From NCBI GenBank assembly GCA_963717995.1, contig CAVQXX010000015.1, forward strand, positions 1,841,857 to 1,905,856: a DNA stretch of 64,000 bases, read 5' to 3'. The position numbers and the translations under genes are program-made. Origin of the DNA: an uncultured Bacteroidales bacterium (GTDB taxonomy: Bacteria; Bacteroidota; Bacteroidia; Bacteroidales; UBA10428). Of the stretch, positions 1 through 43,042 are shown in pieces. The notes under the pieces were generated by a model. It was not told the DNA's origin and searched no databases. It worked only from the letters and a program-made list of their open reading frames with translations. Numbering within the stretch: the first letter of the stretch is position 1; each line of letters begins with the position of its first letter.

Positions 1-578
1 TCGCCTGGAAAAGCATCAAAAATCATTTGCGGATGCAAAACGAAGCCATCCGGCTTGAACAGATCAAACTGCAACAGGAAAAGCTGGAGCGAAGAGAACA
101 GAAGATCACCGTGTTGAAAAATGAAAAACTTGAAGCTGAATTAGAACACAAAAGCAAGGAGCTGGCCAGTTCCACCATGGCGATTATCCGGAAAAATGAA
201 ATGTTACTGCAAATCAAGGCCGAAGTGGAAAATCAGAAAAAGAAACTGGGAAGTCAATATCCAAATAAATATGCTGAGCACCTCATCAGGATGATCAATG
301 AAAATATCAGCAGTGATGATGACTGGAAAATATTCCAGCAGAACTTTGATGTGATCCATGAAAATTTCTTCAGGCATATCAAAAGCAAATACCCCGAAAT
401 GACAACGCACGACCTGAAACTTTGCGCATTTATAAGGTTAAACCTGTCGACAAAAGAAATAGCGTCGCTCCTTAATATAACGGTGCGCGGGATCGAAGCC
501 GCCCGGTACCGTCTCAGAAAAAAATTCGGCATCACCGCCGAACAAAATTTAACGGAATTTCTGATTGGACTGAAATAG
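1..578 (+). CDS. C-terminal part of a LuxR/FixJ-type HTH regulator, 5'-truncated by the window edge. Probably the tail of a large Bacteroidota sensor-regulator.
   Basis: The frame is open back to position 3, so the start lies outside the window. A coiled-coil-like stretch (KLQQEKLERREQK...) is followed by the LuxR-type HTH 'LSTKEIASLLNITVRGIEAARYRLRKKFGI'. Stop TAG at 576-578. Confidence 0.7.
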   Translation, partial: AWKSIKNHLRMQNEAIRLEQIKLQQEKLERREQKITVLKNEKLEAELEHKSKELASSTMAIIRKNEMLLQIKAEVENQKKKLGSQYPNKYAEHLIRMINENISSDDDWKIFQQNFDVIHENFFRHIKSKYPEMTTHDLKLCAFIRLNLSTKEIASLLNITVRGIEAARYRLRKKFGITAEQNLTEFLIGLK

Positions 579-584
579 TGACAA

Positions 585-616
585 GCAACGAGTGACCGGC
601 AACGAGTGACCAGCAA
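585..616. repeat. 14-nt tandem repeat (GCAACGAGTGACC+N), about 2.3 copies, just after the stop codon
   Basis: gcaacgagtgacc occurs at 585-597 and 599-611, followed by gcaaaa. AGTGAC recurs three times, giving TGA in different frames. Confidence 0.8.
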
Positions 617-701
617 AAAATCCAGTTCCAATATTTCTTTTGACGTAAAACAACACCGAATATCCAAGTCAGAATATCGCTAACAGCCGGCAGAATAGAG
701 C

Positions 702-1412
702 CTAGAAAGATCCGTAAAGAGCATGCTCCTCCGAATTGCAATAGATGGAAGAGAAAAAATAAAATCCGTTGCGGTTGGTGATCAGCTTGCGCTGAAGATG
801 CAACACGGGATGTCCCGGTGGAACCTGGAGAAAATTGCAGATGCTTTCATCCGCTCTTATGGCACGGATGCGCTGCTCGCCACTTTTTACCTCAATCTGA
901 AATGATCGGCGAAGAATATCAAAAAGGGACTGGTCCTCAAACCTGCGGTTACAGAAGCGAGGAAGATTGATGTTGGGCAGGTAGTTCAAATCGTAAAAAA
1001 CAGGGATGTCATTCACCAGCCGGAGCCGTTCCAGATAAATGCAACCCGACTGGCGGAATTCGTCATTCAGCGGAAACATAAAATCTTCCGGCCATTGTAT
1101 AATAGCCGGTTTGGACAGAATTCTGGTCCTGAGATTGTGCTTGCCCAATGCTGAAGTGGTTCCGGATATCGATAATATCCCTATGCCAATGGGCGGACCA
1201 TTTACGATACTTCCCTTACCCTTGTGTTTTCGGATCATGCCCTCGTTCAGCATGGTATCCAGTGCATGCCGCACTGTTGGTCTGGTGATCCTGTACTGCT
1301 GGCAAAGGTCATTTTCGGAAGGAAGCAGATCACCAGGCCTGTAAACGCCATCCATGACCTGCTTTCTCAATACTTCATAAAGTTGCCGGTATTGTGGAAT
1401 TGAATTGCTCAT
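702..1412 (-). CDS. GntR/HutC-family transcriptional regulator (winged HTH plus UTRA-like effector domain)
   Basis: The ATG at 1410-1412 gives MSNSIPQYRQLYEVLRKQ... with the GntR wHTH 'LPSENDLCQQYRITRPTVRHALDTMLNEGMIRKHKGKGSIV'. The longer ORF-track start (1484) adds an implausible AT-rich leader. The gene is divergent from the E2/E1 genes. Confidence 0.85.
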   Translation of the reverse strand: MSNSIPQYRQLYEVLRKQVMDGVYRPGDLLPSENDLCQQYRITRPTVRHALDTMLNEGMIRKHKGKGSIVNGPPIGIGILSISGTTSALGKHNLRTRILSKPAIIQWPEDFMFPLNDEFRQSGCIYLERLRLVNDIPVFYDLNYLPNINLPRFCNRRFEDQSLFDILRRSFQIEVKSGEQRIRAIRADESICNFLQVPPGHPVLHLQRKLITNRNGFYFFSSIYCNSEEHALYGSF

Positions 1413-1432
1413 ATAAAAAAATAAGTAAAATA

Positions 1433-1448
1433 ACTTGTAATTACAAGT
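1433..1448. promoter_or_regulatory. Perfect 16-bp palindrome ACTTGTAATTACAAGT, a candidate GntR operator
   Basis: It lies 21 nt upstream of the GntR start, in the divergent promoter region. Half-sites recur as TTACAAGT (1527-1534) and ACTTGTAA (1584-1591). The GT...AC core is typical of GntR-family operators. Confidence 0.5.
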
Positions 1449-1510
1449 ATAATTAATATATTTGCGAAGACATAAACCGAACAATTATTTAGCGCTGTAA
1501 ATATAATAAT

Positions 1511-1518
1511 TAAATTTG
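1511..1518 (+). promoter_or_regulatory. Candidate Bacteroidota -7 promoter box (TAAATTTG = TAnnTTTG) for the E2/E1 genes
   Basis: Exact match to the TAnnTTTG consensus described for Bacteroides sigma-ABfr promoters. It sits about 100 nt upstream of ATG 1621, and the TTACAAGT half-site follows immediately downstream. Confidence 0.35.
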
Positions 1519-1620
1519 ACATATGTTTACAAGTTAACCATAAAATCTTAAGCAAGGAGTTTGATTATATATCCTTTATGGAAACTTGTAAAAGAATCGT
1601 TCATTTCAAAAAAAATAAAT

Positions 1621-2916
1621 ATGGCTGTTGCTGTTATTATGCCCCGACAGGGGCAATCTGTTGAAACCTGTATTATCACAGAATGGTTAAAGAAGAAAGA
1701 TGATCCTGTAAAAACAGGTGACATTCTTTTTTCTTATGAAACCGATAAGGCCTCATTTGATGGAGAAGCCATGGCAGACGGAGTGTTGCTGGAGATTTTT
1801 GCTGCGGCCGGAGATGAAGTTCCTGTTTTAACAAACATCGCTGTCATTGGCAACCCGGGAGAGGACGTTAATACTTTCAGACCAGGAGGATCAGCTAGTC
1901 CTGCAGCTGAAAGCTCCACGCCTGTGACCGAAACCGTAGCCACAGCCCCTACTGTTTTGGAAACACCGGTTACGGCTGCAAGTGATCAACGGATCAGAAT
2001 TTCCCCGCGGGCAAAAACCATGGCATTAAAAATGGGATTGAATCCTGCGCTGATAAAAGGTACCGGACCCAATGGCAGGATTATTGTCCGTGACCTGGAA
2101 AATCTACAGGGACAATCACAGGTGATTACGGCCACGGCTCAGGTTACTGCCTCTGCAAATGTTGCCTCAACTGCCACGGCTTCCGCTTTCAGTCAATTCC
2201 AGGGTGCAGCTCCAATCGGCGCATTTGAGGAGAAAAAATTATCGAACGTTCGTAAACTCATTGCCAGGGCAATGTATGAATCCATCAGCACTTCTGCCCA
2301 GCTCACCCATCATATGTCGGCTGATGTCCGGAAGCTTCTCGCCCTGCGCAGTCAGGTAAAGGCAGAACTCGATAAAGGAGGCAATGTGAATATCACACTG
2401 AATGACATGATCTGTTTTGCTGTGATCCGTGCACTTGAATTGTTTCCTGAAGTCAACACTCATTTTACAGGTACCAGCCTTCGTGAGTTTAAGAAGGTTC
2501 ACCTTGGACTGGCGGTTGACACACCTCGCGGACTCATGGTACCCGCAATTCAGAATGCAGATGATCTTTCGCTGAAGGGACTTTCAGCCCGCCTGCGTGA
2601 GGTGGCTGACCAGTGCCGTAAAGGAAATGTAAATCCCGAAATGCTGGCCAGCACCGCTGCCTCCTTTACAGTTTCCAACCTGGGAAATTATGGTGTGGAA
2701 ATGTTCACTCCCATTATTAATCTTCCACAGGTAGCCATTCTGGGAGTAAACACGATTATTTCCCGGCCGGCCGACCTGGGCAACGGGACATTTGGTTTCA
2801 TTCCGGTGATCGGTTTGTCGCTTACCTATGATCACAGGGCTGTTGACGGAGGACCCGCCACACTGTTCCTGAAGGAGATTAAAAATCAAATTGAAAATTT
2901 TAAAGAGAGTATTTAA
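1621..2916 (+). CDS. Dihydrolipoamide acyltransferase, the E2 component of a 2-oxoacid (pyruvate/acetoin/branched-chain type) dehydrogenase complex
   Basis: Start MAVAVIMPRQGQSVE at ATG 1621. Lipoyl-lysine motif 'ETDKAS', an Ala/Pro/Thr-rich linker, an E3-binding-like segment 'RISPRAKTMALKMGLNPALIKGTGPNGRI', and the catalytic 'DHRAVDG'. Confidence 0.92.
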   Translation: MAVAVIMPRQGQSVETCIITEWLKKKDDPVKTGDILFSYETDKASFDGEAMADGVLLEIFAAAGDEVPVLTNIAVIGNPGEDVNTFRPGGSASPAAESSTPVTETVATAPTVLETPVTAASDQRIRISPRAKTMALKMGLNPALIKGTGPNGRIIVRDLENLQGQSQVITATAQVTASANVASTATASAFSQFQGAAPIGAFEEKKLSNVRKLIARAMYESISTSAQLTHHMSADVRKLLALRSQVKAELDKGGNVNITLNDMICFAVIRALELFPEVNTHFTGTSLREFKKVHLGLAVDTPRGLMVPAIQNADDLSLKGLSARLREVADQCRKGNVNPEMLASTAASFTVSNLGNYGVEMFTPIINLPQVAILGVNTIISRPADLGNGTFGFIPVIGLSLTYDHRAVDGGPATLFLKEIKNQIENFKESI

Positions 2917-2924
2917 GAATGTAT

Positions 2925-2957
2925 AGTTTTTAACTTTTAGTTTTTAACTTTTAACTT
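2925..2957. repeat. AGTTTTTAACTTTT 14-nt tandem repeat (x2 plus a partial copy) in the E2-E1 spacer
   Basis: agtttttaactttt occurs at 2925-2938 and 2939-2952, followed by aactt. The repeat contains TAA and TAG. Confidence 0.8.
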
Positions 2958-2962
2958 ATATC

Positions 2963-5431
2963 ATGCCTAAGAGTCAATTCATCGATCCAAAAGATATCCG
3001 GAAAACAGGAAAAATTACATTTGGAACCATCCCGGTAAACCAATATAACAGGAATATTACCGATGAGAAAAAGAATTTTTCCAATGATGATTTTGTTCGT
3101 ATATATCGCGACATGGTCATTATCAGGGAATTCGAAAACATGATCAATGATATCAAAATTAAAAATGAGTACCGCGGTATTGCTTACAACCATCCGGGCC
3201 CTGCCCACCTGTCGATGGGACAGGAGGCTTCAGCAGTGGGGATGGCTTATGCTCTTACCGTAGATGACCTGATTTTTGGCTCACACCGTAGTCATGGTGA
3301 GATCCTTGCAAAAGGATTATCAGCAATCCACCAGCTTTCGGAAGATGCCCTCATGGAGGTTATGAAGAATTATTTTGGCGGCAAGGTTCTTGCCGTTGTG
3401 GAAAGAGATCATAAAGGAACTGTTCGAGAACTGGCGATCCGTTTCCTGCTTTATGGAACACTTGCTGAGATCTTTGCCCGTGAAAACGGATTTAATAAAG
3501 GCCTCGGCGGATCGATGCATGCCTTTTTCACTCCTTTCGGAGTATATCCCAATAATGCAATTGTGGGTGGATCAGGCGATATTTCAGTAGGTGCAGCGCT
3601 CTTTAAAAAAGTGAACGGCAAATCGGGAATTGTAGTCTGTAATATTGGTGATGCATCCATGGCATGCGGTCCGGTTTGGGAGGGAATTTCATTCGCCACC
3701 ATGGACCAGTATACCCAGCTTTGGGAAGATGCATACCGTGGCGGTCTGCCCATCATTTTCAACTGTATGAATAATCAGTACGGAATGGGAGGCCAGACCT
3801 GCGGCGAAACCATGGGATACGGCCTGGTAGCCCGGATTGGTGCAGGCGTAAATGCCGAAATGATGCATGCTGAAAGGGTGGATGGTTACAATCCGCTGGC
3901 TGTTATTGATGCCTTTAAACGCAAAAAGGCCATTTTGCTCTCTAAAAAAGGTCCGGTTTTACTTGATACCCTCACATACAGGTTCAGCGGTCACTCTCCT
4001 TCCGATGCCTCCTCTTACAGGAGCAAAGAAGAAGTAGAAGCATGGCAGAATGTGGACTCGATCATTACATACGCGCGAACTCTGAATGATGCCGGCATCA
4101 CTGCTTCGTCATCCCTGGATTCGATCAGGCAAAATATAATTGAGGAGATCACCGGCATTTTGAAACTGTCTATCGATGACAATCTCTCTCCGCGGTTAAA
4201 CCTTTCGATGAATCCGGATGCAATAGCGGAACTGATGTTTTCCAACGGATCAGTTGATTCACTGGATGATCGTAAGCCGGAATCCCTTATTCCCCTCGAA
4301 GAAAATCCAAGGGTAAAAAGTCTCAAAACCAAACAAAGGTTCTATCTCGACAAAGAAGGCAAACCCGTATCAAAAGCTAAATTATTCCAGCTCAGGGATG
4401 GCATATTCGAAGCCGTGATCGATCGCTTTTATAAGGATCCCACCCTGGTGGCCTATGGCGAGGAAAACCGTGACTGGGGCGGTGCTTTTGCCGTATATCG
4501 CGGACTTACTGAAGCTATGCCCTACCATCGCCTGTTCAATTCACCGATCGCCGAAGGTGCTATTGTGGGAACAGCAATTGGCTATGGCATGGCAGGAGGC
4601 CGGGTAATTGCTGAAATTATGTATTGCGATTTCATTGGACGCTGCGGGGATGAACTGTTCAACCAGTTGCCGAAATGGCAGGCCATGAGCGGAAACCTCA
4701 TCAAGATGCCGGTTGTTATCCGCGTCTCTGTAGGATCAAAATATGGTGCACAGCATTCACAGGATTGGTCATCACTTATTGCTCATGTTCCGGGAATTAA
4801 AGTGGTTTTCCCCACTACGCCATATGACGCCAAGGGATTAATGAACAGCGCGCTGCAAGGTACAGATCCTGTTGTGTACTTCGAAAGCCAGCGGATTTAT
4901 GATGTAGGCGAACAGTTCCATGAAGAAGGAGTTCCTGAAGGCTATTATGAAATTCCCATTGGGGATCCCGATATAAAACGCAAAGGATCAGATATCACCA
5001 TCCTTACAATTGGTTCAACGCTGTACATGGCTTTGAAGGCTGCCGACAAACTGCAGAATGAATACGGAATTTCAGCCGAGATTATTGATGCCCGTAGTCT
5101 GGTTCCGTTTAATTATGACCTGGTAATCGAATCTGTGAAAAAGACAGGCCGCATTGTGCTGGCCAGCGATGCCTGTGCACGTGGCTCGTATTTGCGCGAT
5201 GTTGCTTCCAACATAGCTGAAATGGGATTTGACTATCTCGATGCACCACCGGTGGTTGTTGGATCCCGCAATTGGATCACTCCTGCCTATGAAATGGAAG
5301 AATACTTCTTCCCCCAGGTGGAATGGATCCTGGATGCCATACATGAAAGAATTGTACCGTTGAAAAATCATAAGGTTACTTCTGATTGGTCGGTTGAAAC
5401 ACAAATGAAGAGGAGCCGGTTGGGGGTGTAA
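2963..5431 (+). CDS. Fused E1 alpha/beta subunit of a TPP-dependent 2-oxoacid dehydrogenase
   Basis: 822 aa. The N-terminal half resembles E1-alpha, with the TPP motif 'GDASMACGPVWE...FNCMNNQYGMGG' (GDG..NN type). The C-terminal half resembles E1-beta (transketolase-like Pyr and C-terminal domains: 'NSPIAEGAIVGTAIGYGMAGGR', 'IDARSLVPFNYD'). Confidence 0.9.
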   Translation: MPKSQFIDPKDIRKTGKITFGTIPVNQYNRNITDEKKNFSNDDFVRIYRDMVIIREFENMINDIKIKNEYRGIAYNHPGPAHLSMGQEASAVGMAYALTVDDLIFGSHRSHGEILAKGLSAIHQLSEDALMEVMKNYFGGKVLAVVERDHKGTVRELAIRFLLYGTLAEIFARENGFNKGLGGSMHAFFTPFGVYPNNAIVGGSGDISVGAALFKKVNGKSGIVVCNIGDASMACGPVWEGISFATMDQYTQLWEDAYRGGLPIIFNCMNNQYGMGGQTCGETMGYGLVARIGAGVNAEMMHAERVDGYNPLAVIDAFKRKKAILLSKKGPVLLDTLTYRFSGHSPSDASSYRSKEEVEAWQNVDSIITYARTLNDAGITASSSLDSIRQNIIEEITGILKLSIDDNLSPRLNLSMNPDAIAELMFSNGSVDSLDDRKPESLIPLEENPRVKSLKTKQRFYLDKEGKPVSKAKLFQLRDGIFEAVIDRFYKDPTLVAYGEENRDWGGAFAVYRGLTEAMPYHRLFNSPIAEGAIVGTAIGYGMAGGRVIAEIMYCDFIGRCGDELFNQLPKWQAMSGNLIKMPVVIRVSVGSKYGAQHSQDWSSLIAHVPGIKVVFPTTPYDAKGLMNSALQGTDPVVYFESQRIYDVGEQFHEEGVPEGYYEIPIGDPDIKRKGSDITILTIGSTLYMALKAADKLQNEYGISAEIIDARSLVPFNYDLVIESVKKTGRIVLASDACARGSYLRDVASNIAEMGFDYLDAPPVVVGSRNWITPAYEMEEYFFPQVEWILDAIHERIVPLKNHKVTSDWSVETQMKRSRLGV

Positions 5432-5435
5432 AGGC

Positions 5436-5463
5436 CGGTATTCGGTGATCGGTGATCGGTAAA
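5436..5463. repeat. CGGTRAT heptamer array (4 units) starting 5 nt after the E1 stop
   Basis: Units are cggtatt, cggtgat, cggtgat, cggtaaa. TGA/TAA recur with a 7-nt period. Confidence 0.8.
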
Positions 5464-5473
5464 TTAGAAATAA

Positions 5474-5558
5474 TTGTAGAGCCAGGGCAATGCCCTGGCT
5501 GTAAGGTCACCAGCACAGGAGAAAAATACTGTAGAGACAAGGCAATGCCTTGTCTGTA
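5474..5558. repeat. Two copies of a roughly 30-nt hairpin element (TGTAGAG-stem-AAT-stem-GTA). A third copy lies at 41819-41839.
   Basis: Copy 1 has stem AGCCAGGGC/GCCCTGGCT (5480-5500). Copy 2 has stem AGACAAGGC/GCCTTGTCT (5535-5555). Both have loop AAT, and the stem differences between copies are compensatory. Confidence 0.8.
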
Positions 5559-5587
5559 CGATTACCAACACGGATCAAAATATAGGG

Positions 5588-5657
5588 TAGAGTTAGTTTA
5601 AGTAGTAAGTTTAGTAGTTAGTAGTTAGTAGTTAGGAGTTAGGAGTTTGGAGTTGGG
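5588..5657. repeat. Degenerating AGTTAGT/AGTTAGG heptamer array (about 10 units)
   Basis: ...agtagttagtagttagtagttaggagttaggagtttggagttgggg. TAG recurs every 7 nt. Confidence 0.8.
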
Positions 5658-5679
5658 GCAGCCAGAGGGTGGCTGCCCC
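5655..5679 (+). terminator. GC-rich hairpin (9-bp stem GGGGCAGCC/GGCTGCCCC). Possible terminator or insulator between E1 and the PHP-like gene.
   Basis: The stem is perfect with a 7-nt loop and is followed by a weak T-rich tail (ttattaacaatt). It lies 29 nt before ATG 5708. Confidence 0.4.
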
Positions 5680-5707
5680 TTATTAACAATTAAAGGAAAA
5701 GCAAAAA

Positions 5708-6943
5708 ATGAAGTCGAATTTTCTTTCCACGTATCCCGATAGTCAGGCATTGCTAAAGATGACTCCTGCCAGTGAAATCCCACAGGTAAACGGTCATGTT
5801 CATACTCCTTATTCATTCAGCGCCTTTGAAAATATCGGACAGATATTTGAAATGGCACGCAAAGAAAAGATTGTGGCTGTGGGAATTAACGATTTTTTTG
5901 TATCCGACGGTTATGAACCCTTCTGCACAGAAGCTCTGAAAAACAATGTTTTTCCGCTGTTCAACATCGAGTTCATCAGTCTGCTAAAATCGGAACAACA
6001 GCAAGGGATCCGGATCAACGATCCAAATAATCCGGGTCGCTGTTATTTTAGCGGAAAGGGATTAAACTATCCTTTTTCGGTTGATAAATCCCTGGCTGAA
6101 AAACTCGGCCATATAGTGAGCCAGAGTCAGGAACAGGTAAAAGCCATGATCGAGAAATGCAATCAGTGGTTTACAGCAATAAAAGCAGACATACGGCTTA
6201 ATTACCCTGATATCCGCCTGAAATTTGCCAAGGAACTCGTCAGGGAACGTCATATTGCAAAGGCCATCCGTGTAGCGGTCTTCGAAACATTTTCAGGTGA
6301 GCATGAGCGTAAAACTTTGCTGACCCTGATATTTGATGGAAAAGAACCAAAATCAAACCTTACCGATATTCCTGCCCTTGACAATGAAATCAGGGGCAAT
6401 CTGCTGAAATCGGGGGGTAAGGCCTTTGTTGAAGAGGATGAAAATGCTTTCATGAGTTTAGATGAAGTAATAGAAATTATCCTGGCTGCCGGTGGAATTC
6501 CATGTTACCCGGTCTTACTTGATGATAAAAACGGCACCTATACCGAATATGAGCGCGATCCGGAAATTTTGTATAAAGAACTGGGCAAAAGGAATATAAA
6601 ATGCCTGGAACTTATTCCGGGAAGAAATGATGCCTCTCATCTTCAGCGTTTTGTGGAGTTTTTTCAGAAAAAGGATTTTGTTATACTCCTGGGAACTGAG
6701 CATAACGCTCCTGAAATGATTCCCCTAACCTGTGACACACGCGACAAAAAGCCTTTAAATAGCTATATCAGCCAAATTTCCTATGAAGGAGCCTGCGTGG
6801 TCGCCGCTCATCAATACCTGAAATCCAAAGGATTACACGGTTTTATCAATGAAAAGGGATTGCCTGATACTGCACGGAAATCTGAACTGGCTAAACTCGG
6901 CAGTGCTGTTATTCATTATACAAACGTAACCTATAAAGCATAA
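5708..6943 (+). CDS. PHP-domain-like metal-dependent phosphoesterase family protein
   Basis: N-terminal 'NGHVHTPYSFSAF' resembles PHP motif I (HxH..S) and a late 'GTEHN' resembles the C-terminal His motif. The stop is 2 nt before the next gene. Family assignment is by motif only. Confidence 0.5.
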   Translation: MKSNFLSTYPDSQALLKMTPASEIPQVNGHVHTPYSFSAFENIGQIFEMARKEKIVAVGINDFFVSDGYEPFCTEALKNNVFPLFNIEFISLLKSEQQQGIRINDPNNPGRCYFSGKGLNYPFSVDKSLAEKLGHIVSQSQEQVKAMIEKCNQWFTAIKADIRLNYPDIRLKFAKELVRERHIAKAIRVAVFETFSGEHERKTLLTLIFDGKEPKSNLTDIPALDNEIRGNLLKSGGKAFVEEDENAFMSLDEVIEIILAAGGIPCYPVLLDDKNGTYTEYERDPEILYKELGKRNIKCLELIPGRNDASHLQRFVEFFQKKDFVILLGTEHNAPEMIPLTCDTRDKKPLNSYISQISYEGACVVAAHQYLKSKGLHGFINEKGLPDTARKSELAKLGSAVIHYTNVTYKA

Positions 6944-6945
6944 AT

Positions 6946-8916
6946 ATGACTGACAAGTATCTTTCTGATCTCATCAGTATATCTCAGCATTTTGGTGCAG
7001 ATAAGGAATATGTCATTGCCGGAGGCGGTAATACCTCTTACAAAAATGACACCGACATCTGGGTAAAGGCAAGTGGTACATCCCTGCAGAATATCAGTAT
7101 AGCTGGTTTTGCCAAATTGCACCGGAGCCTTCTTCAGGAAATGTATACGAAGAAATACAGTCAGGAGGCCGATAAACGGGAGGCTGAGGTTAAGGCCGAC
7201 CTTTACAGGGCCTGCCATGAAGGAATTACCGTGCGGCCTTCGGTAGAAACCTCAATGCATGAGATCATCAATTATCCCTTTGTGGTTCATACCCACCCCA
7301 CCCTTGTGAATGCAATTACATGCTCAAACAAGGCGGAAGAAATAATCCTTTCGTTATTCGGCGATGAGGCCTTGTACATTCCCTGGGAAGATCCGGGTTA
7401 TATCCTGTTCGCCAAAATAAGGGATCTTCTGTGGGAATGGCGTAAAACACATTCGGCCGATCCGCAGATAATTTTCCTGCAAAATCATGGTGTTTTTGTG
7501 GCTTCCGGCACCACAGAGGATATTTTTGAAAAATACAGGAATATTGACTCAATCATACGCAAGCATCTTAAACAGATGCCTGATACAACCGCAATAGAAG
7601 TACCTGCGCAGATTGTGAGGATATTACCGGCCCTGCGAATGATCTTTTCCAGGGAAAACGCAAAAATAGCCGGCATCAGAAATAATCCGCTGGCACAGCT
7701 TTTCCTCAAAGACGCTGCCAGTTTTGCAAAGGTTGCCCTTCCGTTCATTCCCGACCAGATAGTGTATTGCAAGGCAAGAGCAATCTATCTTGAACAGGAT
7801 CAGCCCGAGGCAATCATTGCAGAATGCAACGCCAGGGTCACTGCATATGAAAAACAATACGGATATATGCCCAAAATGGTGGGCCTGAAGGGTTACGGAA
7901 TAATAGCCATTGAAGATACCTGGAAATCAGTGGATACAATGCAGGAGGTTTTTGAGGACTGGATGAAGATCAGCTTTCTGTCGGAAAATTTCGGCGGTCC
8001 TCATTTCATGAGTGAAAGGGATATCTCCTTTATCGATAACTGGGAGGTGGAAAACTACAGAAGACAGATCTCCAAATCAGCATCATCAAAAGGCAGGGCA
8101 GAAAATAAGATCGTTGTGGTAACCGGAGGTGCCCAGGGATTTGGTGCCGGAATCGCTGCACATATGATGAATGAAGGGGCCAACATGGTAATCGCCGATC
8201 TGAATGAGACTATGGGTAAAGAACTGGCTAATACCTTTAACCAGGGAAAAAACAAGGGGAAAGCAATCTTTGTAAAGACTGATGTATCCAGTGCCTCCTC
8301 CGTTGAAAACCTTATCACGGAAACAGTACGGAATTTTGGCGGACTGGATGTGTTCATCAGTAATGCGGGCATACTTCGTGCAGGCGGACTGGATGAAATG
8401 AGTCCTGAATCGTTTGAACTAATGACAAAGGTTAACTACAATGCCTATTTTCTATGTGCAAAATATGCTTCAGCCGTATTAAAACTGCAATCCACACAGA
8501 AGCCGGGATTTTTCACCGACATTATACAGATTAACTCAAAATCAGGATTAAAGGGCAGCAATAAAAACTTTGCCTATGCAGGAGGCAAATTCGGAGGAAT
8601 TGGCCTTACACAATCCTTTGCCCTTGAACTGATGCCTTTCGGTATTAAGGTGAATTCGATATGTCCGGGTAATTTCTTTGAAGGTCCATTGTGGAGTGAT
8701 CCGGAGACGGGATTGTTTGTCCAATATCTGAGAACAGGCAAGGTACCGGGAGCAAAAACGATCGAGGATGTAAAAGCCCGGTATGAAAAGCAGGTTCCGG
8801 CAGGCCGCGGCTGCAGGGTAGAGGATGTGATGAAAGCCATTTATTATGTCATTGAACAGGAATATGAAACAGGTCAGGCTGTTCCGGTAACAGGTGGACA
8901 GGAAATGCTTAGTTAG
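6946..8916 (+). CDS. Bifunctional class II aldolase/adducin-domain plus short-chain dehydrogenase fusion (rhamnulose-1-phosphate aldolase/lactaldehyde dehydrogenase RhaEW-like architecture)
   Basis: 656 aa. The N-terminal ~400 aa are class-II-aldolase-like ('FVVHTHP', 'QNHGVFV'). The C-terminal SDR has 'VVTGGAQGFGAGIA' (TGxxxGxG), 'NAG' and the catalytic 'YAGGK' (YxxxK). Confidence 0.8.
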   Translation: MTDKYLSDLISISQHFGADKEYVIAGGGNTSYKNDTDIWVKASGTSLQNISIAGFAKLHRSLLQEMYTKKYSQEADKREAEVKADLYRACHEGITVRPSVETSMHEIINYPFVVHTHPTLVNAITCSNKAEEIILSLFGDEALYIPWEDPGYILFAKIRDLLWEWRKTHSADPQIIFLQNHGVFVASGTTEDIFEKYRNIDSIIRKHLKQMPDTTAIEVPAQIVRILPALRMIFSRENAKIAGIRNNPLAQLFLKDAASFAKVALPFIPDQIVYCKARAIYLEQDQPEAIIAECNARVTAYEKQYGYMPKMVGLKGYGIIAIEDTWKSVDTMQEVFEDWMKISFLSENFGGPHFMSERDISFIDNWEVENYRRQISKSASSKGRAENKIVVVTGGAQGFGAGIAAHMMNEGANMVIADLNETMGKELANTFNQGKNKGKAIFVKTDVSSASSVENLITETVRNFGGLDVFISNAGILRAGGLDEMSPESFELMTKVNYNAYFLCAKYASAVLKLQSTQKPGFFTDIIQINSKSGLKGSNKNFAYAGGKFGGIGLTQSFALELMPFGIKVNSICPGNFFEGPLWSDPETGLFVQYLRTGKVPGAKTIEDVKARYEKQVPAGRGCRVEDVMKAIYYVIEQEYETGQAVPVTGGQEMLS

Positions 8917-8957
8917 TTGTGTTGTTAGTTGTTAGTTGTTAGTTGTTAGTTGTTAGT
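8917..8957. repeat. GTTGTTA heptamer array (about 5 units) starting at the stop codon
   Basis: ttgtgttgttagttgttagttgttagttgttagttgttagtg. TAG recurs every 7 nt, so it falls in all three frames. Confidence 0.85.
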
Positions 8958-8974
8958 GCAGATGCATTCATTTT

Positions 8975-8993
8975 CCGTGGATTTCATCCACGG
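8975..8993 (+). terminator. Hairpin CCGTGGAT-TTC-ATCCACGG, a possible intrinsic terminator of the aldolase/SDR gene
   Basis: Perfect 8-bp stem and 3-nt loop, followed by ttattgat. The T-tract is weak. Confidence 0.35.
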
Positions 8994-9026
8994 TTATTGA
9001 TATATGGCCTCTCCGGGGCCGTCACC

Positions 9027-9050
9027 ACTGCAAGACTGCAAGACTGCAAG
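9027..9050. repeat. ACTGCAAG octamer x3
   Basis: Three perfect copies. The same octamer family occurs at 28511, 36659 and 39286, and inverted at 43043. Confidence 0.85.
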
Positions 9051-9061
9051 ATCATAAAACA

Positions 9062-9165
9062 ATTAGCACATTAGCACATTGGCATATTAGCACATTAGCA
9101 TATTAGCATATTAGCATATTAGCACATTAGCACATTAGCACATTAGCACATTAGCACATTAGCAT
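9062..9165. repeat. ATTAGCAY octamer array, 13 contiguous units, ending 15 nt before ATG 9181
   Basis: 8x attagcac, 4x attagcat and 1x attggcat, counted unit by unit. An inverted copy of the family (gctaatgt) lies at 39239-39270. Confidence 0.9.
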
Positions 9166-9180
9166 ATTAATTTTTAAATT

Positions 9181-10455
9181 ATGAAAACCAAGGCAATACG
9201 AATATACGGCAAGGATGACCTGAGGCTCGATGAGTTTGAACTGCCGGAGCTCCGTGAAGATGAGATACTGGCTCATGTTATTTGCGACAGCATCTGCATG
9301 TCGTCGTATAAAGCTACAAAGCAGGGCACTGATCATAAAAGAATCCCTGATGATGTACATATCAATCCCACCATTATAGGCCATGAATTCAGCGGGGAGA
9401 TCGTAAAATCGGGAAACAAGTGGAAGGATCAGTTCAAACCCGGCATGAAATTCTCTATCCAGCCGGCCATTAATTATCCCGACGGACCCGTTGGAATATT
9501 GTCTGCACCCGGTTATTCATACCGTTATATTGGCGGGGACGCAACCTATATCATTATTCCGAACGAGGTAATGGAACTGAATTGCCTGCTGCCTTATACC
9601 GGTCCGGGATATTATCCCGGAGCACTTGCAGAGCCCCTGTCCTGTGTAATTGGCGCTATGCATGCCAATTACCATACGCGTCCCGGTTCTTATGTGCACC
9701 AGATGGAGATTGTGGACGGGGGAAACATGGCCCTGCTTGCCGGTGTCGGTCCCATGGGTCTTGCTGCCATCAATTATGTAATTAACCGGAAAGACCGTAA
9801 ACCATCACTCCTGGTGGTTACTGATATTGATCAGACCAGGCTTGACAGGGCAGCCAGTTTATTTACTCCTGAAAAGGCACTGCAAAATGGAATCAGGCTT
9901 CATTATTTGAATACAAAGAACCAGGCAGATCCGGTAAAAAGTCTGCTCCAGATCACAGATGACAAGGGATACAACGATGTATTCGTGTTTGCTCCGGTAC
10001 CTGGCGTAATTCAACAGGGAGATTCCATCCTGGCTTTTGACGGATGCCTGAACTTTTTTGCCGGCCCCTCAGATCCCCAATTTAGTTCAGCATTTAACTT
10101 TTATAATGTTCATTACAATTTCACCCACATTGTAGGCACCAGCGGGGGTAATAATGACGATATGGAAGAGGCGCTGATCCTCATGTCGGAAAACCTGGAT
10201 CCTGCCGGACTGGTAACGCACATTGGAGGGCTGGATGCAGTGATTGAAACCACCAGGCATCTTCCTGACATTCCGGGTGGAAAGAAACTGATTTATACAA
10301 ACATTTCCATGCCGCTTACGGCACTATCTGATTTTGAAGAAAAGGGGAAAATAGATCCCTTGTTCAGGGAACTGGCGGTTTTGATTGCAAAAACAAAAGG
10401 CCTCTGGAATACTGAGGCCGAGAAATATTTGATTAATAACGCCAAATCAATTTAA
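9181..10455 (+). CDS. Zinc-dependent medium-chain dehydrogenase/reductase, a long ~420-aa form (sorbose-1-phosphate-reductase-like size class)
   Basis: 'GHEFSGEIV' (the GHE Zn-ADH motif), an N-terminal Cys cluster 'HVICDSICMSS', and the Rossmann motif 'LAGVGPMGLAA'. Confidence 0.8.
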   Translation: MKTKAIRIYGKDDLRLDEFELPELREDEILAHVICDSICMSSYKATKQGTDHKRIPDDVHINPTIIGHEFSGEIVKSGNKWKDQFKPGMKFSIQPAINYPDGPVGILSAPGYSYRYIGGDATYIIIPNEVMELNCLLPYTGPGYYPGALAEPLSCVIGAMHANYHTRPGSYVHQMEIVDGGNMALLAGVGPMGLAAINYVINRKDRKPSLLVVTDIDQTRLDRAASLFTPEKALQNGIRLHYLNTKNQADPVKSLLQITDDKGYNDVFVFAPVPGVIQQGDSILAFDGCLNFFAGPSDPQFSSAFNFYNVHYNFTHIVGTSGGNNDDMEEALILMSENLDPAGLVTHIGGLDAVIETTRHLPDIPGGKKLIYTNISMPLTALSDFEEKGKIDPLFRELAVLIAKTKGLWNTEAEKYLINNAKSI

Positions 10456-10635
10456 CCATTCATCTGACGAAATACGCGAGAAAACAAAAAGGATTATCAT
10501 CAGATCCCCCAAAATTTAACGCAGAGAACGGTAAGTTTTTGTTTACCAGGCTTGAAGAGGTCGCAGAGAAATCTCATTGCATTCGATTTAACCGTTTTCA
10601 AGGTTAAAATCTGATCATCAGCGAAAATCTGCGAG

Positions 10636-10687
10636 AAAAAAAGCATTAAAAAAATGCAACTATCCCATTATTGTTAGATAGTTGCAT
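10636..10687 (-). terminator. Rho-independent terminator of the minus-strand gene 10710-11432
   Basis: 11-bp perfect stem ATGCAACTATC (10654-10664) / GATAGTTGCAT (10677-10687). On the minus strand it is followed by TTTTTTAATGCTTTTTTT. Confidence 0.75.
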
Positions 10688-10709
10688 CTAAAGTTAATTT
10701 CAGACAAGT

Positions 10710-11432
10710 TTACGGTTTTACGAAAACTGCAGGATCAACCGGCTGATTAATATCAACTTTGGTAACCGTTTCGGTAAGAAAGAACTGACCTCCGTAATTT
10801 GTTTCAACTTTGTAGGGAACAGCCAGGCCGGCATCGGTTTTCCTGTAATCAGAGAATCCGATTGTTATATCCATTGATTGTCCGCCCATGTTATTGGTTT
10901 GAACAATCTGAACGAGATAACCTGTCCCGGAATCAAAGAAATATTGAGTGTTAACACTATCCGGAGAAGTTACGATAACCTTATCAGTATTCAGATCACC
11001 AATAGCCTGTTGTCCTGCAAGCTCCAGTTTGTATCCCCTGGCGGCAAAATCAAAAAAAGGACCGCCAATATAGATCCCGTCCTTGCTTGCCTTATATTGT
11101 TCAGGAGGCATGTATTCTGCATTGTAATTGCCCGTCATGGGGTTGATTGACCATCCTGCGCTGTCGGTTACACACATGGTTACCGAGGTACCCTGTACAT
11201 CAATCTCATCCTTTGCACCTTTACCTACCAAAATGGTATGCTTAATAGTTCCTGTTCCCCCCATTACATCCAACGATCCCTCGGTATACATTGAACTGAT
11301 CTTGCTGATCTGGTCCTTGCCACCAATGGCATCAATATATTTTCCAACTATTTCATCTGCAGTTTGTGCAGGAACCATTTGCGAGGCAAACAGGGTTAAA
11401 ACTGAAAGTGTAATAAATTTTAAGGTTTTCAT
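10710..11432 (-). CDS. Secreted hypothetical protein (signal peptide; possibly a LolA-like / lipoprotein-sorting-like fold)
   Basis: The N-terminus MKTLKFITLSVLTLFASQMVPAQ is a typical Sec signal. 'TADEIVGKYIDAIGG' resembles the start of LolA-fold outer-membrane lipoprotein-sorting-like families. The functional call is weak. Confidence 0.45.
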   Translation of the reverse strand: MKTLKFITLSVLTLFASQMVPAQTADEIVGKYIDAIGGKDQISKISSMYTEGSLDVMGGTGTIKHTILVGKGAKDEIDVQGTSVTMCVTDSAGWSINPMTGNYNAEYMPPEQYKASKDGIYIGGPFFDFAARGYKLELAGQQAIGDLNTDKVIVTSPDSVNTQYFFDSGTGYLVQIVQTNNMGGQSMDITIGFSDYRKTDAGLAVPYKVETNYGGQFFLTETVTKVDINQPVDPAVFVKP

Positions 11433-11460
11433 TTGTTAGTTGTTAAGTTATTATTTAGTG
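11433..11460. repeat. TTGTTAG-type heptamer array (4 degenerate units)
   Basis: Units are ttgttag, ttgttaa, gttatta, tttagtg. It belongs to the same family as the arrays at 8917 and 5588. Confidence 0.7.
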
Positions 11461-11573
11461 TTCCGGGTTGCTTTTATTCCCTCTTGCTAAAGCGAATAAG
11501 CTATGAAATTATTAAAAAATATTTAATCCTGTCATATAAATTGCACTTTTTACCAAATGACGTTTTAAGGAAC

Positions 11574-14027
11574 TTATTCAACACCCACCTCAATGGATGC
11601 TTCTTTCAATCCTTCAGACGTTGCCACAATTATTGCCTTTCCACTGTTTGTTGTCGATTGCAGAATCATAAGGCACATGCCATTATAGGCTTTCCCCGAA
11701 TCGGCTTTGAAGGGTTCGATACTGGCCTGGAAGCCGTTGTCAACGCCTGCAATGGTAGCTTCCCCCTTACAACTGAACTTAATGAGGTTTGATGCATGGG
11801 GGACCAGATTACCCTCATCATCAAGAATCTTTACAGTGATGAATGCAAGATCCTTTCCATCCTTCATTATTGATTTTCGATCAGCTGCCATGGATATTTT
11901 AAATGGCTCTCCTGCTGTTTTGATTTCCCGTGTAAGCACTGTTTTTCCGTTTTTGCGCGAGACAGCCGTAATTTTCCCGGGTTCGAAAATTGTCCTCCAC
12001 ATTACATGCAGGTCTCCGTTCTCTTTTTTCCTTATTCCAATCGATCTGTCGTTCAGGAATAGCTCAACCTCATCCGCGTTGTTATAATAAGCCCAGATAT
12101 CAATTACCTGCCCGTTCTTCCAGTTCCAGTGCGGAAACACATGCAGAACCGGCTTGGTTGTCCACACGCTTTGATAAAGGTAATAGGCATCCTTTGGAAA
12201 TCCTGCCAGATCAATTATGCCGAAATAGGAGCTTCTGGCCGGCCACCAGTAAGGTGTTGGTTCCCCCAGGTAATCCCAGCCGGTCCATATGAATGTACCG
12301 GCCACAAAGGGAAGCCGGAAAAATTCCTTCAGTGATTCTTCATGAGTGGAAGCCCATACCGCTGAAAAATTATCATAGGATGAAGCAGTCAGATCATCCC
12401 TTAGATTCTGATTACCCCTTCCTGCACGCAGTATCTTATCCGATGGCATATGGTAATCTCCCCTTGATTCGAAGGCAGAAGCTGCTTCAGTAGCTATAAA
12501 AGGCTTCTTCGCCCATTTCTTCTGTACATCTTTCCATACAACGTGCCTGTAATTATAACCGATTATGTCAATCGCTTCTGACTGGATTACAGCATTTGTT
12601 TTGCCTTCAACCTGGTCGAGGGCAGCAATAACAGGCCGGGTAGGATCCAGTTTATGCACGATACCTGCCAGCTCCCTTGTTATGGCTTGTCCGGAACTGT
12701 CCGGGGGAAATCCGTCTCCATCCGGAAAATAGGATTGTTCGCGAATTTCATTTCCAATACTCCATATAAAAACGGAAGGATGGTTCCTGTCTCTTAACAG
12801 CTGGTCCTCAAGGTCCCTTACATGCCACTTATCCCAATCGAGATGGTAATCGAAAGAATTTTTAGGTTTCTTCCACATATCAAATGCCTCGTCAATAACA
12901 ATGAAGCCCATCCTGTCGCACAAATCAAGCAATTCAGGTGCGGGAGGATTATGGGAAGTGCGAATGCCGTTGCATCCCATCGTTTTCAGCATGTCAAGTT
13001 GTCTTTCAAGTGCCCGGACGTTCAAAGCAGAACCCAGGGCGCCAAGATCGTGATGATTACATACACCGTATATCTTCATGGATTTCCCGTTCAGGGAAAA
13101 ACCGGAATCGGCATCAAAGGAAAAATACCGCACACCGAAAGGAGTGATATACTCATCTACCAGCTTTTTCTTTTTATAAATCTGGGTGACGGCCCTGTAT
13201 AAAACCGGATGTTCAACGGACCAGAGGGTTGGGCGGGCAATGGTTATTTCCTGTGCTATCTCACCCCGGGAATTGGCTTCCAGCTTCATTGTCCGCGCAG
13301 CAAAGCCTGCCTTTGCAGAGTCACCTGCAAGCAGCGTGGTCCGGATCTCAAATTCTTCGCCTTCCGCACCCTCATTTCGAACAGCACTGGTGATACTTAC
13401 TGAGGCACTATCTTTATTCACCCGGGGAGTAGTAATAAAAGTACCCCAATGATCAACATGCAGATTGTTAGTGGTAACCATCCAAACATTCCTGTATATC
13501 CCGGAACCGGAATACCACCTTGAATTCGGCTGTTTTGAATTATCCACCCTTACAGCTATCACGTTATTTTTATGATCAAAGGCAAGATAGGGAGTAAGGT
13601 CATACCGGTAAGAAATATAACCATTGGGCCTCATTCCAAGGGAATGGCCGTTGATCCATACTTCTGCATTCCTGTATATACCATCAAAGTCAATAAATAC
13701 CTTTTTGCCCCTGGCAGCGGATGGCATATCAAATGTTTTCCTGTACCATGCAATGCCACCGGGTAATGCTCCACCGCCAGGTGTAGCAGGATTATTCACG
13801 TCAAATTTACCCTCAATGCTCCAGTCGTGCGGAAGATTCAGCTCTCTCCACCTTGTATCAATGAAATCAGACTTTTCCACGCCGGTGGTATCACCGGGAT
13901 GGAACTTCCAGTTTTCGTTAAAGCTTTCACGGCTTCGAACAGGTAATTTACCGCACGATCCCAGGAACATGGTTGCCGATAGCGCTCCAAGGAAGATCAG
14001 GTTTTTCATGGTAGTTGATTTGATCAT
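11574..14027 (-). CDS. Glycoside hydrolase family 2 (beta-galactosidase-like) lipoprotein
   Basis: 'NHPSVFIWSIGNE' (GH2 acid/base region), 'HDWSIEG', and the lipobox 'MKNLIFLGALSATMFLGSCGK'. The true start may be the ATG at 14009. Paralog of 49816-52272. Confidence 0.9.
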   Translation of the reverse strand: MIKSTTMKNLIFLGALSATMFLGSCGKLPVRSRESFNENWKFHPGDTTGVEKSDFIDTRWRELNLPHDWSIEGKFDVNNPATPGGGALPGGIAWYRKTFDMPSAARGKKVFIDFDGIYRNAEVWINGHSLGMRPNGYISYRYDLTPYLAFDHKNNVIAVRVDNSKQPNSRWYSGSGIYRNVWMVTTNNLHVDHWGTFITTPRVNKDSASVSITSAVRNEGAEGEEFEIRTTLLAGDSAKAGFAARTMKLEANSRGEIAQEITIARPTLWSVEHPVLYRAVTQIYKKKKLVDEYITPFGVRYFSFDADSGFSLNGKSMKIYGVCNHHDLGALGSALNVRALERQLDMLKTMGCNGIRTSHNPPAPELLDLCDRMGFIVIDEAFDMWKKPKNSFDYHLDWDKWHVRDLEDQLLRDRNHPSVFIWSIGNEIREQSYFPDGDGFPPDSSGQAITRELAGIVHKLDPTRPVIAALDQVEGKTNAVIQSEAIDIIGYNYRHVVWKDVQKKWAKKPFIATEAASAFESRGDYHMPSDKILRAGRGNQNLRDDLTASSYDNFSAVWASTHEESLKEFFRLPFVAGTFIWTGWDYLGEPTPYWWPARSSYFGIIDLAGFPKDAYYLYQSVWTTKPVLHVFPHWNWKNGQVIDIWAYYNNADEVELFLNDRSIGIRKKENGDLHVMWRTIFEPGKITAVSRKNGKTVLTREIKTAGEPFKISMAADRKSIMKDGKDLAFITVKILDDEGNLVPHASNLIKFSCKGEATIAGVDNGFQASIEPFKADSGKAYNGMCLMILQSTTNSGKAIIVATSEGLKEASIEVGVE

Positions 14028-18769: not shown

Positions 18770-18807
18770 TTAGGGGCTTAGGGGCTTAGGGGCTTATAGG
18801 TTGTTAG
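18770..18807. repeat. TTAGGGGC octamer array (3 units plus degenerate units) starting 5 nt after the stop
   Basis: Units are ttaggggc x3, then ttatagg and ttgttag. It is inverted relative to the array at 18917-18964. Confidence 0.85.
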
Positions 18808-18855
18808 AGACGTCGGTAAATTAAGATATTGTTACATTGGAAGAATAAATATAAT

Positions 18856-18896: not shown

Positions 18897-18916
18897 GAAG
18901 CCCCTGGTTCCCCATG

Positions 18917-31216: not shown

Positions 31217-31221
31217 GCATT

Positions 31222-39228: not shown

Positions 39229-39238
39229 TGAACAATCT

Positions 39239-43036: not shown

Positions 43037-43042
43037 GAAGAA

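Follow-up and report, generated by a model that had tools for sequence, protein, structure and literature searches.

RhaEW (YuxG/Caur_2283) is a bifunctional L-rhamnulose-1-phosphate aldolase/L-lactaldehyde dehydrogenase, its RhaW half is 22% identical to the sorbitol-6-phosphate dehydrogenase (S6PDH) of E. coli, and lactate dehydrogenase genes join the RhaEW regulons in some bacteria (PMC3870299). The Klebsiella L-sorbose operon, sorCDFBAME, pairs SorE, the L-sorbose-1-phosphate reductase and a medium-chain dehydrogenase/reductase (MDR), with a glucitol-6-phosphate dehydrogenase of the short-chain dehydrogenase/reductase (SDR) type, and the acetoin dehydrogenase system (AcoA/AcoB/AcoC/AcoL) shows a thiamine diphosphate (ThDP)-dependent E1 and a lipoyl E2 encoded outside a 2-oxoacid context. 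The ydj cluster of E. coli, studied by the Raushel laboratory, contains an aldo-keto reductase (YdjG), a PfkB kinase (YdjH), an aldolase (YdjI) and two MDRs (YdjJ and YdjL). The cluster described here lies at positions 702-10455 of a 64-kb stretch (contig CAVQXX010000015.1 of assembly GCA_963717995.1, positions 1,841,857 to 1,905,856; hereafter, the window) from an uncultured Bacteroidales bacterium. It contains six genes, encoding a GntR-type regulator, an E2 acyltransferase, a fused E1 alpha/beta, a PHP-fold protein, an aldolase/SDR fusion and a MDR dehydrogenase. These genes are conserved as a unit, and so is a palindromic operator. Every part falls into a known superfamily, and the whole would be a variant of a catabolic sugar operon. 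Read from its genes, the cluster is tentatively proposed as a GntR/HutC-repressed operon for the catabolism of a phosphorylated ketose or alditol whose most likely source is a deoxy-sugar, a route which would end in an Aco-type cleavage to acyl-coenzyme A (acyl-CoA).

Organization of the gene cluster

According to the open reading frame (ORF) list and the domain scans, the cluster shows a divergent regulatory gene and five enzyme genes on the forward strand. The regulatory gene (702-1412, reverse strand) encodes a GntR/HutC-family protein with a GntR helix-turn-helix (Pfam, 59 bits) and a UTRA effector domain (72 bits). The second gene (1621-2916) encodes an E2 dihydrolipoyl acyltransferase with the Pfam domains Biotin_lipoyl, E3_binding and 2-oxoacid_dh, and the third (2963-5431) a ThDP-dependent E1 in which the alpha and beta subunits are fused, with E1_dh, Transket_pyr and Transketolase_C in one 822-aa protein. 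These are followed by a gene encoding a PHP-fold metal-dependent enzyme of 411 aa (5708-6943), identified by Pfam PHP together with an AlphaFold model and Foldseek, a gene encoding a 656-aa fusion of a RhaE-type class II aldolase (residues ~1-380, Aldolase_II) and a SDR (~385-656, adh_short) (6946-8916), and a gene encoding a long Zn-dependent MDR dehydrogenase of the SorE/YggP family (9181-10455; 424 aa, ADH_N and ADH_zinc_N). The original prediction, made on this DNA from its letters, had given the same gene order and coordinates, and all six genes were found with the domains that it named. Of its start codons, that of E2 at 1621 is judged right, with the ORF open from 1561; the gntR ORF reaches a TTG at 1484 (702-1484), but the ATG at 1412 is the likelier start and gives a protein of 236 aa, relatives having 236-246 aa. 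E2, the SDR, the MDR and the aldolase domain all retain their catalytic motifs, and none of the cluster proteins reaches an NCBIfam equivalog cut-off.

Conservation of the gene unit

A total of 93 related loci were gathered via the PHP protein, and all the cluster proteins were mapped in them by tblastn; neighbours were counted after removal of duplicates and only in loci with sufficient flanking DNA. The fused E1 gene is upstream of the PHP gene in 28 of 32 loci, the aldolase/SDR gene follows the PHP gene in 46 of 48, and the MDR gene comes after that in 33 of 36. E2 and GntR genes are present in 20 of 20 loci, and gntR is divergent from the operon in 20 of 20 with upstream room. Among the cluster proteins, conservation is highest for the fused E1 (74-99% identity across loci), with the MDR second (61-97%). 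Since the identity of the PHP protein falls to 48% across ~90 loci while the outer flanks differ between them, the six genes are a conserved unit. The nearest relatives of the window genome are Danish metagenome-assembled genomes (MAGs), and a search of genome contigs with one protein gave six close Bacteroidales MAGs. A pattern scan confirmed at least 595 relatives in JGI metagenomes, and a protein search gave thousands of homologues; the operon is common, yet no distinctive protein of it has an assigned function.

These counts bear on whether GntR-E2-E1 and PHP-aldolase/SDR-MDR are two unrelated modules that stand side by side by chance. In the window, long spacers with a terminator-like hairpin part three blocks of genes, and a few loci (L092, L089 and L068) show PHP, with or without the aldolase/SDR gene, apart from E1/E2. 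However, order and orientation are kept in ~90 loci with unrelated flanks, the spacers are 30-60 nt in most relatives, and accessory genes between E1 and PHP leave the unit unbroken, which makes this explanation extremely improbable. The original prediction had staked its reading on the co-conservation of E1/E2 with the PHP, aldolase/SDR and MDR genes, and they do stay together in ~90 loci; accidental adjacency of the genes was rejected on the neighbour counts.

The window shows the minimal version of the cluster. Most relatives at ~50% PHP identity contain extra genes between E1 and PHP, which encode a HAD-IIA phosphatase, a HAD-IA phosphatase similar to beta-phosphoglucomutase and HxpB, a YdjG-like aldo-keto reductase and a free class II aldolase of ~210 aa (FucA/AraD/OtnC-like); a convergent PfkB kinase gene is found in 19 of 32 loci, and some loci add a gene for a KdsD-like SIS protein, an isochorismatase-like protein, a second classical MDR or a Gfo/Idh/MocA oxidoreductase. 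These extended clusters resemble the ydj cluster in the YdjG-like aldo-keto reductase (260 bits), PfkB, aldolases and one or two MDRs; they differ from it in that the ydj aldolase is of another superfamily, ydj shows no E1/E2 or PHP genes, and the aldo-keto reductase here is below the 550-bit cut-off. The absence of a kinase stated in the original prediction is true of the window and not of the family, and that of lipoamide dehydrogenase (E3) extends from the cluster to the whole 64-kb window, in which tblastn with the E3 of L012 found none; L012 is the sole locus with E3 in the cluster, directly upstream of E1. The missing kinase, phosphatases and E3 are a trait of the window's lineage only. 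In L003/L004 (11243-12463), the fusion is of only 406 aa and lacks residues 1-221, which contain the aldolase catalytic core, with GntR, E2, E1, PHP and MDR intact; therefore, the SDR/MDR/E1/E2 part can persist without the aldolase core. Five extended loci (L033, L060, L062, L079 and L091) show a resistance-nodulation-division (RND) efflux set, with an outer-membrane factor, a HlyD-type adaptor and an AcrB-type pump, between E1 and the HAD-IIA gene, and L012, on a 6.2-Mb MAG contig, shows a small gene of the bAvd/23S-rRNA-intervening-sequence type (4663-5034) between two HAD genes.

There are three true exceptions among the loci. L092 (8744-13237) contains a true L-rhamnose isomerase gene (rhaA; 623 bits, cut-off 572), followed 6 nt on by PHP and then by an aldolase/SDR gene of the window's subfamily, and this operon shows no kinase, MDR or E1/E2 genes. 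L089 shows fucosidase, HAD and PHP genes, and in L068 the PHP gene is between acetyltransferase genes.

The composition of the extended clusters also bears on an anabolic or overflow role, in which central sugar phosphates would be reduced to alditol phosphates, from which PHP and the HAD enzymes would take the phosphate to leave a free polyol or rare sugar, or sugar-phosphate stress would be relieved, with E1/E2 co-regulated for another purpose. No version of the cluster shows a transporter, up to three phosphatase-type genes are present per cluster, the HAD-IA enzyme resembles the hexitol phosphatase HxpB, fusions of PHP with a MtlD-like protein recall the bifunctional mannitol-1-phosphate dehydrogenase/phosphatase, and the HAD-IIA and PHP pairing is kept in the distant locus L096. 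HutC-type regulators with a divergent operator, however, usually govern catabolic operons, the E1 and E2 genes are the most conserved and always first in the operon, PfkB is present in 19 of the 32 loci, and the window has no HAD phosphatase; a role of this kind is therefore quite improbable.

The E1 and E2 proteins and the Hyphomicrobiales module

The two proteins show the architecture of 2-oxoacid complexes: E1 contains the ThDP and pyrimidine-binding domains, and E2 contains the lipoyl lysine in the motif ETDKA (residues 40-44), the E3-binding domain and the catalytic motif DHRxxDG, as DHRAVDG at 404. Neither of them reaches an equivalog-level NCBIfam match to pyruvate dehydrogenase (PDH), 2-oxoglutarate dehydrogenase or branched-chain 2-oxoacid dehydrogenase, and their best equivalog scores are all below the cut-off: 231 bits for PDH E1 beta (cut-off 321), 191 bits for PDH E1 alpha (394) and 260 bits for E2 (445). 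The window also contains genes encoding a 2-oxoacid:ferredoxin oxidoreductase (29363-32238; a 617-aa protein with POR and POR_N, and a probable second subunit), which mark the organism as an anaerobe whose 2-oxoacid oxidation would be independent of lipoyl complexes.

When plasmids were searched by tblastn, fused E1 homologues appeared at 52% identity, the next tier being at ~33%. Those of Rhizobium pRL8, Agrobacterium pAt15955 and Pleomorphomonas are collinear with the window E1 over the full length, linker included. Six contexts of the Hyphomicrobiales (Rhizobiales) were examined: pRL8, pAt15955, Pleomorphomonas, Kaistia, Pelagibacterium and one MAG (L106). All six show the fused E1 followed by a ~79-aa lipoyl protein, an AcoC-like alpha/beta hydrolase, which matches the C-terminal half of AcoC (NF011457, 153 bits, cut-off 307), and a SorC-type regulator with a sugar-phosphate-binding domain. 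This module of four genes is unannotated and often plasmid-borne (L100, 12001-17649; L101, 10001-14494; L102, 8366-14534; L105-L107). A PfkB or XylB-type kinase gene is near the module in five of the six loci, and the sole kinase gene of the MAG is a FGGY gene ~8.5 kb downstream. Sugar ATP-binding cassette (ABC) transporter genes are found near the module in pRL8, pAt15955 and Kaistia. In addition, pRL8 shows genes encoding a RhaS/LsrB-like binding protein, a FucU-like protein and a psicose-epimerase-like protein; pAt15955, a mannitol-dehydrogenase-family protein and lipA; Kaistia, a protein of glycoside hydrolase family 32 (GH32); and Pelagibacterium, an inositol-monophosphatase-family phosphatase. 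The E1-family member of Pleomorphomonas carries the annotation acoB.

The Bacteroidales cluster and this module share the collinear E1, PfkB/FGGY kinases and one sugar phosphatase nearby. They differ in that the E2 of the module is split and of AcoC type, its regulator belongs to another family, ABC sugar transporters are present, and PHP, aldolase/SDR and SorE-like genes are lacking; the module is itself uncharacterised. Since kinase genes and SorC-type regulators adjoin E1 in these contexts, the E1 family is tied, as judged from gene neighbourhood, to sugar kinases and sugar-phosphate regulators in two phyla, and to an acetoin-type E2 in one of them. The original prediction had suggested an acetoin- or ketol-like substrate for E1/E2, and these orthologues, with their AcoC-type E2, sugar kinases and SorC regulators, lend it indirect support. 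The likeness to the acetoin dehydrogenase system consists of a ThDP E1 and a lipoyl E2 encoded outside a 2-oxoacid context and of the pairing, in the Rhizobiales, of fused E1 orthologues with an AcoC-type alpha/beta-hydrolase acyltransferase. In contrast to that system, E1 is here an alpha/beta fusion, no AcoR-type regulator is found, E3 is usually encoded outside the cluster, and the genes are embedded among sugar-phosphate genes.

The MDR dehydrogenase

The MDR shows the motifs GHE and GVGPMG and is 49% identical over 423 aa to SorE of Klebsiella, 54% identical to YggP of E. coli and 46% identical to the MDR of a L. plantarum sorbose plasmid; many of its orthologues bear the name L-sorbose 1-phosphate reductase in JGI. 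Its sequence places it in the SorE/YggP ketose-1-phosphate reductase family, the class to which the original prediction had assigned it. As in the sor operon, a MDR is found together with a SDR. Unlike it, the cluster shows no phosphotransferase system (PTS), which is also lacking in every related locus, its SDR is fused to an aldolase, its regulator is of the GntR/HutC and not of the SorC type, and its MDR is slightly nearer to the uncharacterised YggP than to SorE. No named relative is closer to the MDR than YggP, which is encoded in the E. coli locus L098 (5127-10481), with the gene order cmtB-cmtA-yggP-glpX/yggF-fumE-yggC; in this locus, yggP has a cryptic mannitol-type PTS on one side and a class II fructose-bisphosphatase gene on the other, the latter being another dehydrogenase/sugar-bisphosphatase pairing.

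If the cluster were devoted to acetoin/2,3-butanediol catabolism, E1/E2 would act as an acetoin dehydrogenase, with the SDR and MDR serving as butanediol/acetoin dehydrogenases. The SDR domain does match acetoin reductases (1geg, 3e-30), the MDR has weak butanediol dehydrogenase matches (6ie0 at E = 4.6e-4, and 28% identity over half the length), and the acoB annotation of Pleomorphomonas points the same way. Against the 49-54% identity of the MDR to SorE and YggP, however, the butanediol dehydrogenase matches are weak, and this explanation leaves PHP, PfkB, the SorC regulators, the HAD sugar phosphatases and the class II aldolase with its phosphate-binding motifs without a role; it is very unlikely.

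The aldolase/SDR fusion

The RhaEW model TIGR02632 aligns with residues 8-652 of the window fusion, that is, from end to end, and gives 233 bits for the window protein, 266 for that of L092 and 243 for that of L012, against a cut-off of 567.75. The aldolase domain keeps the motifs SVET, VHTHP and NHG, which contain the Zn-binding histidine triad and the phosphate-binding motifs, and the SDR domain shows TGG..GFG and Y544xxxK548. By a wide margin, the best match of the SDR domain in the PDB is the Erwinia S6PDH 5o3z (36% identity over 270 aa); the domain scores 219 bits with NF009050 and is only 26-29% identical to SorD. The RhaEW architecture recognised in the original prediction is thus present, with its motifs kept, but the fusion was rejected as a RhaEW equivalog, given 233 bits against a cut-off of 568 and an S6PDH-like SDR. 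Compared with RhaEW, the fusion shows the same full-length two-domain architecture, the HxH and further histidine, the glutamate and the phosphate motifs, and its relative in L092 is in an operon with rhaA. It differs in its SDR half, which is much nearer to S6PDH, in its scores of 233-266 bits against 568, and in its usual partners, which are E1/E2, PHP and the SorE-like MDR rather than rha genes: isomerase, kinase and transporter genes of a rha context are found neither in the window nor in 92 of the 93 related loci, and rhaA is present only in L092. The published description covers RhaEW and not this fusion subfamily or its context (PMC3870299).

The main alternative to the proposed operon is a pathway of the rhamnose/fucose type, in which the RhaE-like aldolase would yield dihydroxyacetone phosphate (DHAP) and lactaldehyde from a ketose 1-phosphate, the SDR would convert the lactaldehyde to lactate, which would go on to pyruvate, E1/E2 would be a dedicated PDH yielding acetyl-CoA, and MDR and PHP would have side roles. 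It draws on the complete RhaEW architecture with the Zn residues kept, on the true RhaA encoded directly upstream of PHP and aldolase/SDR in L092, on PDH subunits as the top family matches of E1 and E2, and on the lactate dehydrogenase genes of some RhaEW regulons (PMC3870299). However, TIGR02632 is missed widely, also in L092, the SDR is 36% identical to a S6PDH whereas RhaW is 22% identical to the E. coli enzyme (PMC3870299), none of the clusters contains a lactate dehydrogenase gene, and RhaA is found in one of the 93 loci. Nor does this pathway give a role to the SorE/YggP homologue, in spite of its rank as the second most conserved protein, and the aerobic Rhizobiales, whose E1 orthologues are accompanied by an AcoC-type E2 and kinases, would be expected to have a housekeeping PDH. 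A rhamnose/fucose-type pathway is therefore unlikely.

The PHP protein

The PHP protein scores 25.3 bits with Pfam PHP (PF02811), just below the gathering cut-off of 26.4, and has no sequence match in NCBIfam, the PDB or plasmids. Its AlphaFold model (predicted local distance difference test, pLDDT, 95) shows the PHP (beta/alpha)7 barrel, and Foldseek relates it with a probability of 1.0 to the TrpH-type structures 3e0f and 2yb1 and to 9etk (RNase AM), with a TM-score of ~0.7 on the target and 12-15% sequence identity. It defines a new family of proteins of ~410 aa with a TrpH-like fold, as predicted by the model, which comprises 472 clusters at 50% identity. Conserved in the family are H30 and H32 (HxH), E88, H182, H332 and H368, and three new motifs, NDPxNPGR, ERH and GTEHN, are invariant. 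In the HMM alignment to PolC, the motif-I aspartate falls in an insert and the histidine of 'TDH' aligns with F/Y, and the third metal site may be lost.

With the TrpH-type phosphoesterases (the pAp phosphatase Cv1693, 2yb1; BAD_1165, 3e0f; RNase AM), the window protein shares the PHP barrel with an inserted helical domain, the HxH, the glutamate and three histidine ligands. It differs from them in being ~120 residues longer, in apparently having S/F in place of the motif-I aspartate and 'INDF' in place of the 'TDH' histidine, and in its sugar-related context, whereas those enzymes are nucleotide-related. Of the 'PHP-like phosphoesterase' of the original prediction, the fold stands in the model, and the activity is putative, two canonical metal ligands being without a counterpart in the HMM alignment.

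The aldolase/SDR gene starts 2 nt beyond the end of the PHP gene, and elsewhere PHP is fused with a RhaE-type aldolase (P0215), so the aldolase and PHP appear to be coupled; another fusion joins PHP with a MtlD-like (mannitol-1-phosphate-dehydrogenase-like) protein (P0183), and MtlD-like genes are beside PHP in L028, L063 and L048. Distant PHP homologues (L095-L097) show unrelated contexts. The RhaA-PHP-aldolase/SDR order of L092 and the window, both without a kinase, raise the minor possibility that PHP is a stand-in kinase, but PfkB is present in most clusters. L092 further prompts the question of whether PHP takes over a missing step in the metabolism of rhamnulose.

The GntR regulator and its probable operator

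The GntR winged helix and UTRA are both above the Pfam cut-offs, which assigns the regulator to the HutC subfamily. Between gntR and the E2 gene, the perfect palindrome ACTTGTAATTACAAGT (1433-1448) is the probable operator: it is conserved in relatives, occurs only once in the whole 64-kb window against a chance expectation of 0, and the form ACTTGTA-N2-TACAAGT is found in every GntR-E2 intergenic region examined. It is just upstream of a -7-like box, TATATTTG (1457-1464, forward strand); the Bacteroidetes-type -7 consensus is TAnnTTTG. The leader of the E2 gene contains two further operator half-sites, TACAAGTT, at 1528-1535 (forward) and 1583-1590 (reverse), and the half-site ...TTTACAAGTT / TAACAAGTT recurs in related loci at an equivalent relative position. 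The palindrome, the -7-like box and the leader half-sites fit autoregulated repression of the operon by its HutC-type regulator.

Proposed pathway

In the proposed operon, the MDR and SDR would act as in the sorbose pathway, in which the carbonyl of a ketose 1-phosphate is shifted, by way of an alditol phosphate, from the phosphate end to the far end, so that the resulting ketose bears its phosphate remote from the carbonyl. If that far end were a methyl group, as in a 6-deoxyhexose or 5-deoxypentose skeleton, the product would be a methyl ketol, that is, a 1-deoxyketose phosphate. A methyl ketol is put forward as the E1 substrate because acetoin-type E1 enzymes cleave such compounds: the Aco-type E1 would cleave it, the acetyl group would pass to the lipoyl-E2 and on to CoA, an aldose phosphate would be released, and the lipoate would be reoxidised by an E3 encoded elsewhere. 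The RhaE-type aldolase and PHP would be a coupled pair acting on a DHAP-derived ketose 1-phosphate or bisphosphate. This pair would supply the pathway or, alternatively, condense the aldose phosphate anew with DHAP and take off the 1-phosphate. GntR would be released from the ACTTGTA-N2-TACAAGT operator by a sugar phosphate. Hints of a deoxy-sugar are the fucosidase or rhamnosidase genes near L089, L023 and L012, the RhaA directly upstream of PHP and aldolase/SDR in L092, and the RhaS-like binding protein and FucU-like protein of pRL8.

It is conceivable, though doubtful, that the fused E1/E2 is a lipoate-dependent 'sugar ketolase', which would convert a phosphorylated sugar ketol to acyl-CoA and an aldose phosphate; one such ketol would be a 1-deoxyketose phosphate that the SorE-like and SrlD-like dehydrogenases form from a 5- or 6-deoxy sugar. 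We know of no report of a lipoate-dependent class of oxidative cleavage for carbohydrates, and literature searches found neither a sugar-ketolase reaction on carbohydrates nor an account of this cluster, YggP or the Rhizobiales module.

Several points weigh against the proposed operon. E1 and E2 score highest, though below the cut-off, on PDH models, and E1 keeps YR..GHS..D..YR, typical of 2-oxoacid E1 alpha subunits; this motif is kept alike in the window and Rhizobiales E1, and the motifs fail to separate the Aco type from the 2-oxoacid type. The fused aldolase is found in nearly every cluster, yet the carbonyl-shift route does not need it, and by our own reasoning L-rhamnulose or L-fuculose would give an aldose phosphate that differs in stereochemistry from D-erythrose 4-phosphate. 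PHP and aldolase/SDR with RhaA, and without MDR or E1/E2, as in L092, would fit a plain RhaEW-like role better. The deoxy-sugar hints are limited to a few loci, no Bacteroidales version contains a transporter gene, and that of the window has no kinase gene. The proposal covers most of the observations, but confidence in it is limited, the role of the aldolase being loose.

If E1/E2 did act on a sugar ketol, this would be a new cut of the carbohydrate skeleton beside those of aldolases, transketolases and phosphoketolases, common to environmental Bacteroidales and plant-associated Hyphomicrobiales. It could account for the way in which anaerobic Bacteroidales obtain acetyl-CoA from deoxy-sugars or related compounds, and these anaerobes would retain all the carbons of the deoxy-sugar rather than excrete propanediol. 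The PHP family would represent a new enzyme that processes sugar (bis)phosphates in concert with a class II aldolase, and a function would be gained for it, for the YggP/SorE-like dehydrogenases and for the four-gene module on the plasmids of genetically tractable Rhizobium and Agrobacterium hosts.

Intergenic spacers and neighbouring genes

Two long spacers, described in the original prediction as structured and repeat-filled, respectively, are present on the forward strand and were confirmed as such. The spacer between E1 and PHP (5432-5707, 276 nt) shows three strong hairpins (minimum free energy -89.8 kcal/mol, z = -5.5), 7-nt tandem repeats and a repeated palindrome at 5476-5503 and 5531-5558; its elements are common only to L006/L008, and in L001 the E1-PHP junction is of ~60 nt. 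The spacer between the aldolase/SDR and MDR genes (8917-9180, 264 nt) contains mostly 7-8-nt tandem repeats and one terminator-like hairpin (8975-8993), and the matching junction of L001 is of ~30 nt. In other relatives, both junctions are of 30-60 nt. No Rfam family is matched in 1-11600. The spacers were rejected as regulatory RNAs, being unconserved beyond the closest relatives and similar to repeats of other intergenic regions. Given the sharing limited to the nearest relatives, the many repeat-filled intergenic regions and the lack of a Rfam match, they are a trait of the lineage and not part of the function of the cluster.

The 7-8-nt repeats are found at 577-616, 2924-2957, 5591-5654, 8912-9169, 18770-18963, 36657-36687, 39234-39321, 43042-43098 and 47140-47210 of the window, often beside GC-rich hairpins. 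Relatives show other repeat units, such as ACAACTTT and AACCAAT runs in L056, L042 and L067, and the repeats look like a fast-evolving trait of the lineage.

Downstream of the cluster and not part of it, a gene on the reverse strand (10710-11432) encodes a 240-aa protein with no match in Pfam or NCBIfam, which is conserved together with a GalB-like GH2 beta-galactosidase gene (11574-14027) and alaS only in the closest relatives. Further along the window, a gene at 32298-35297 encodes a 999-aa protein that shows an unusual pairing of a response-regulator receiver with a nucleotide-binding domain of the pyruvate phosphate dikinase type.

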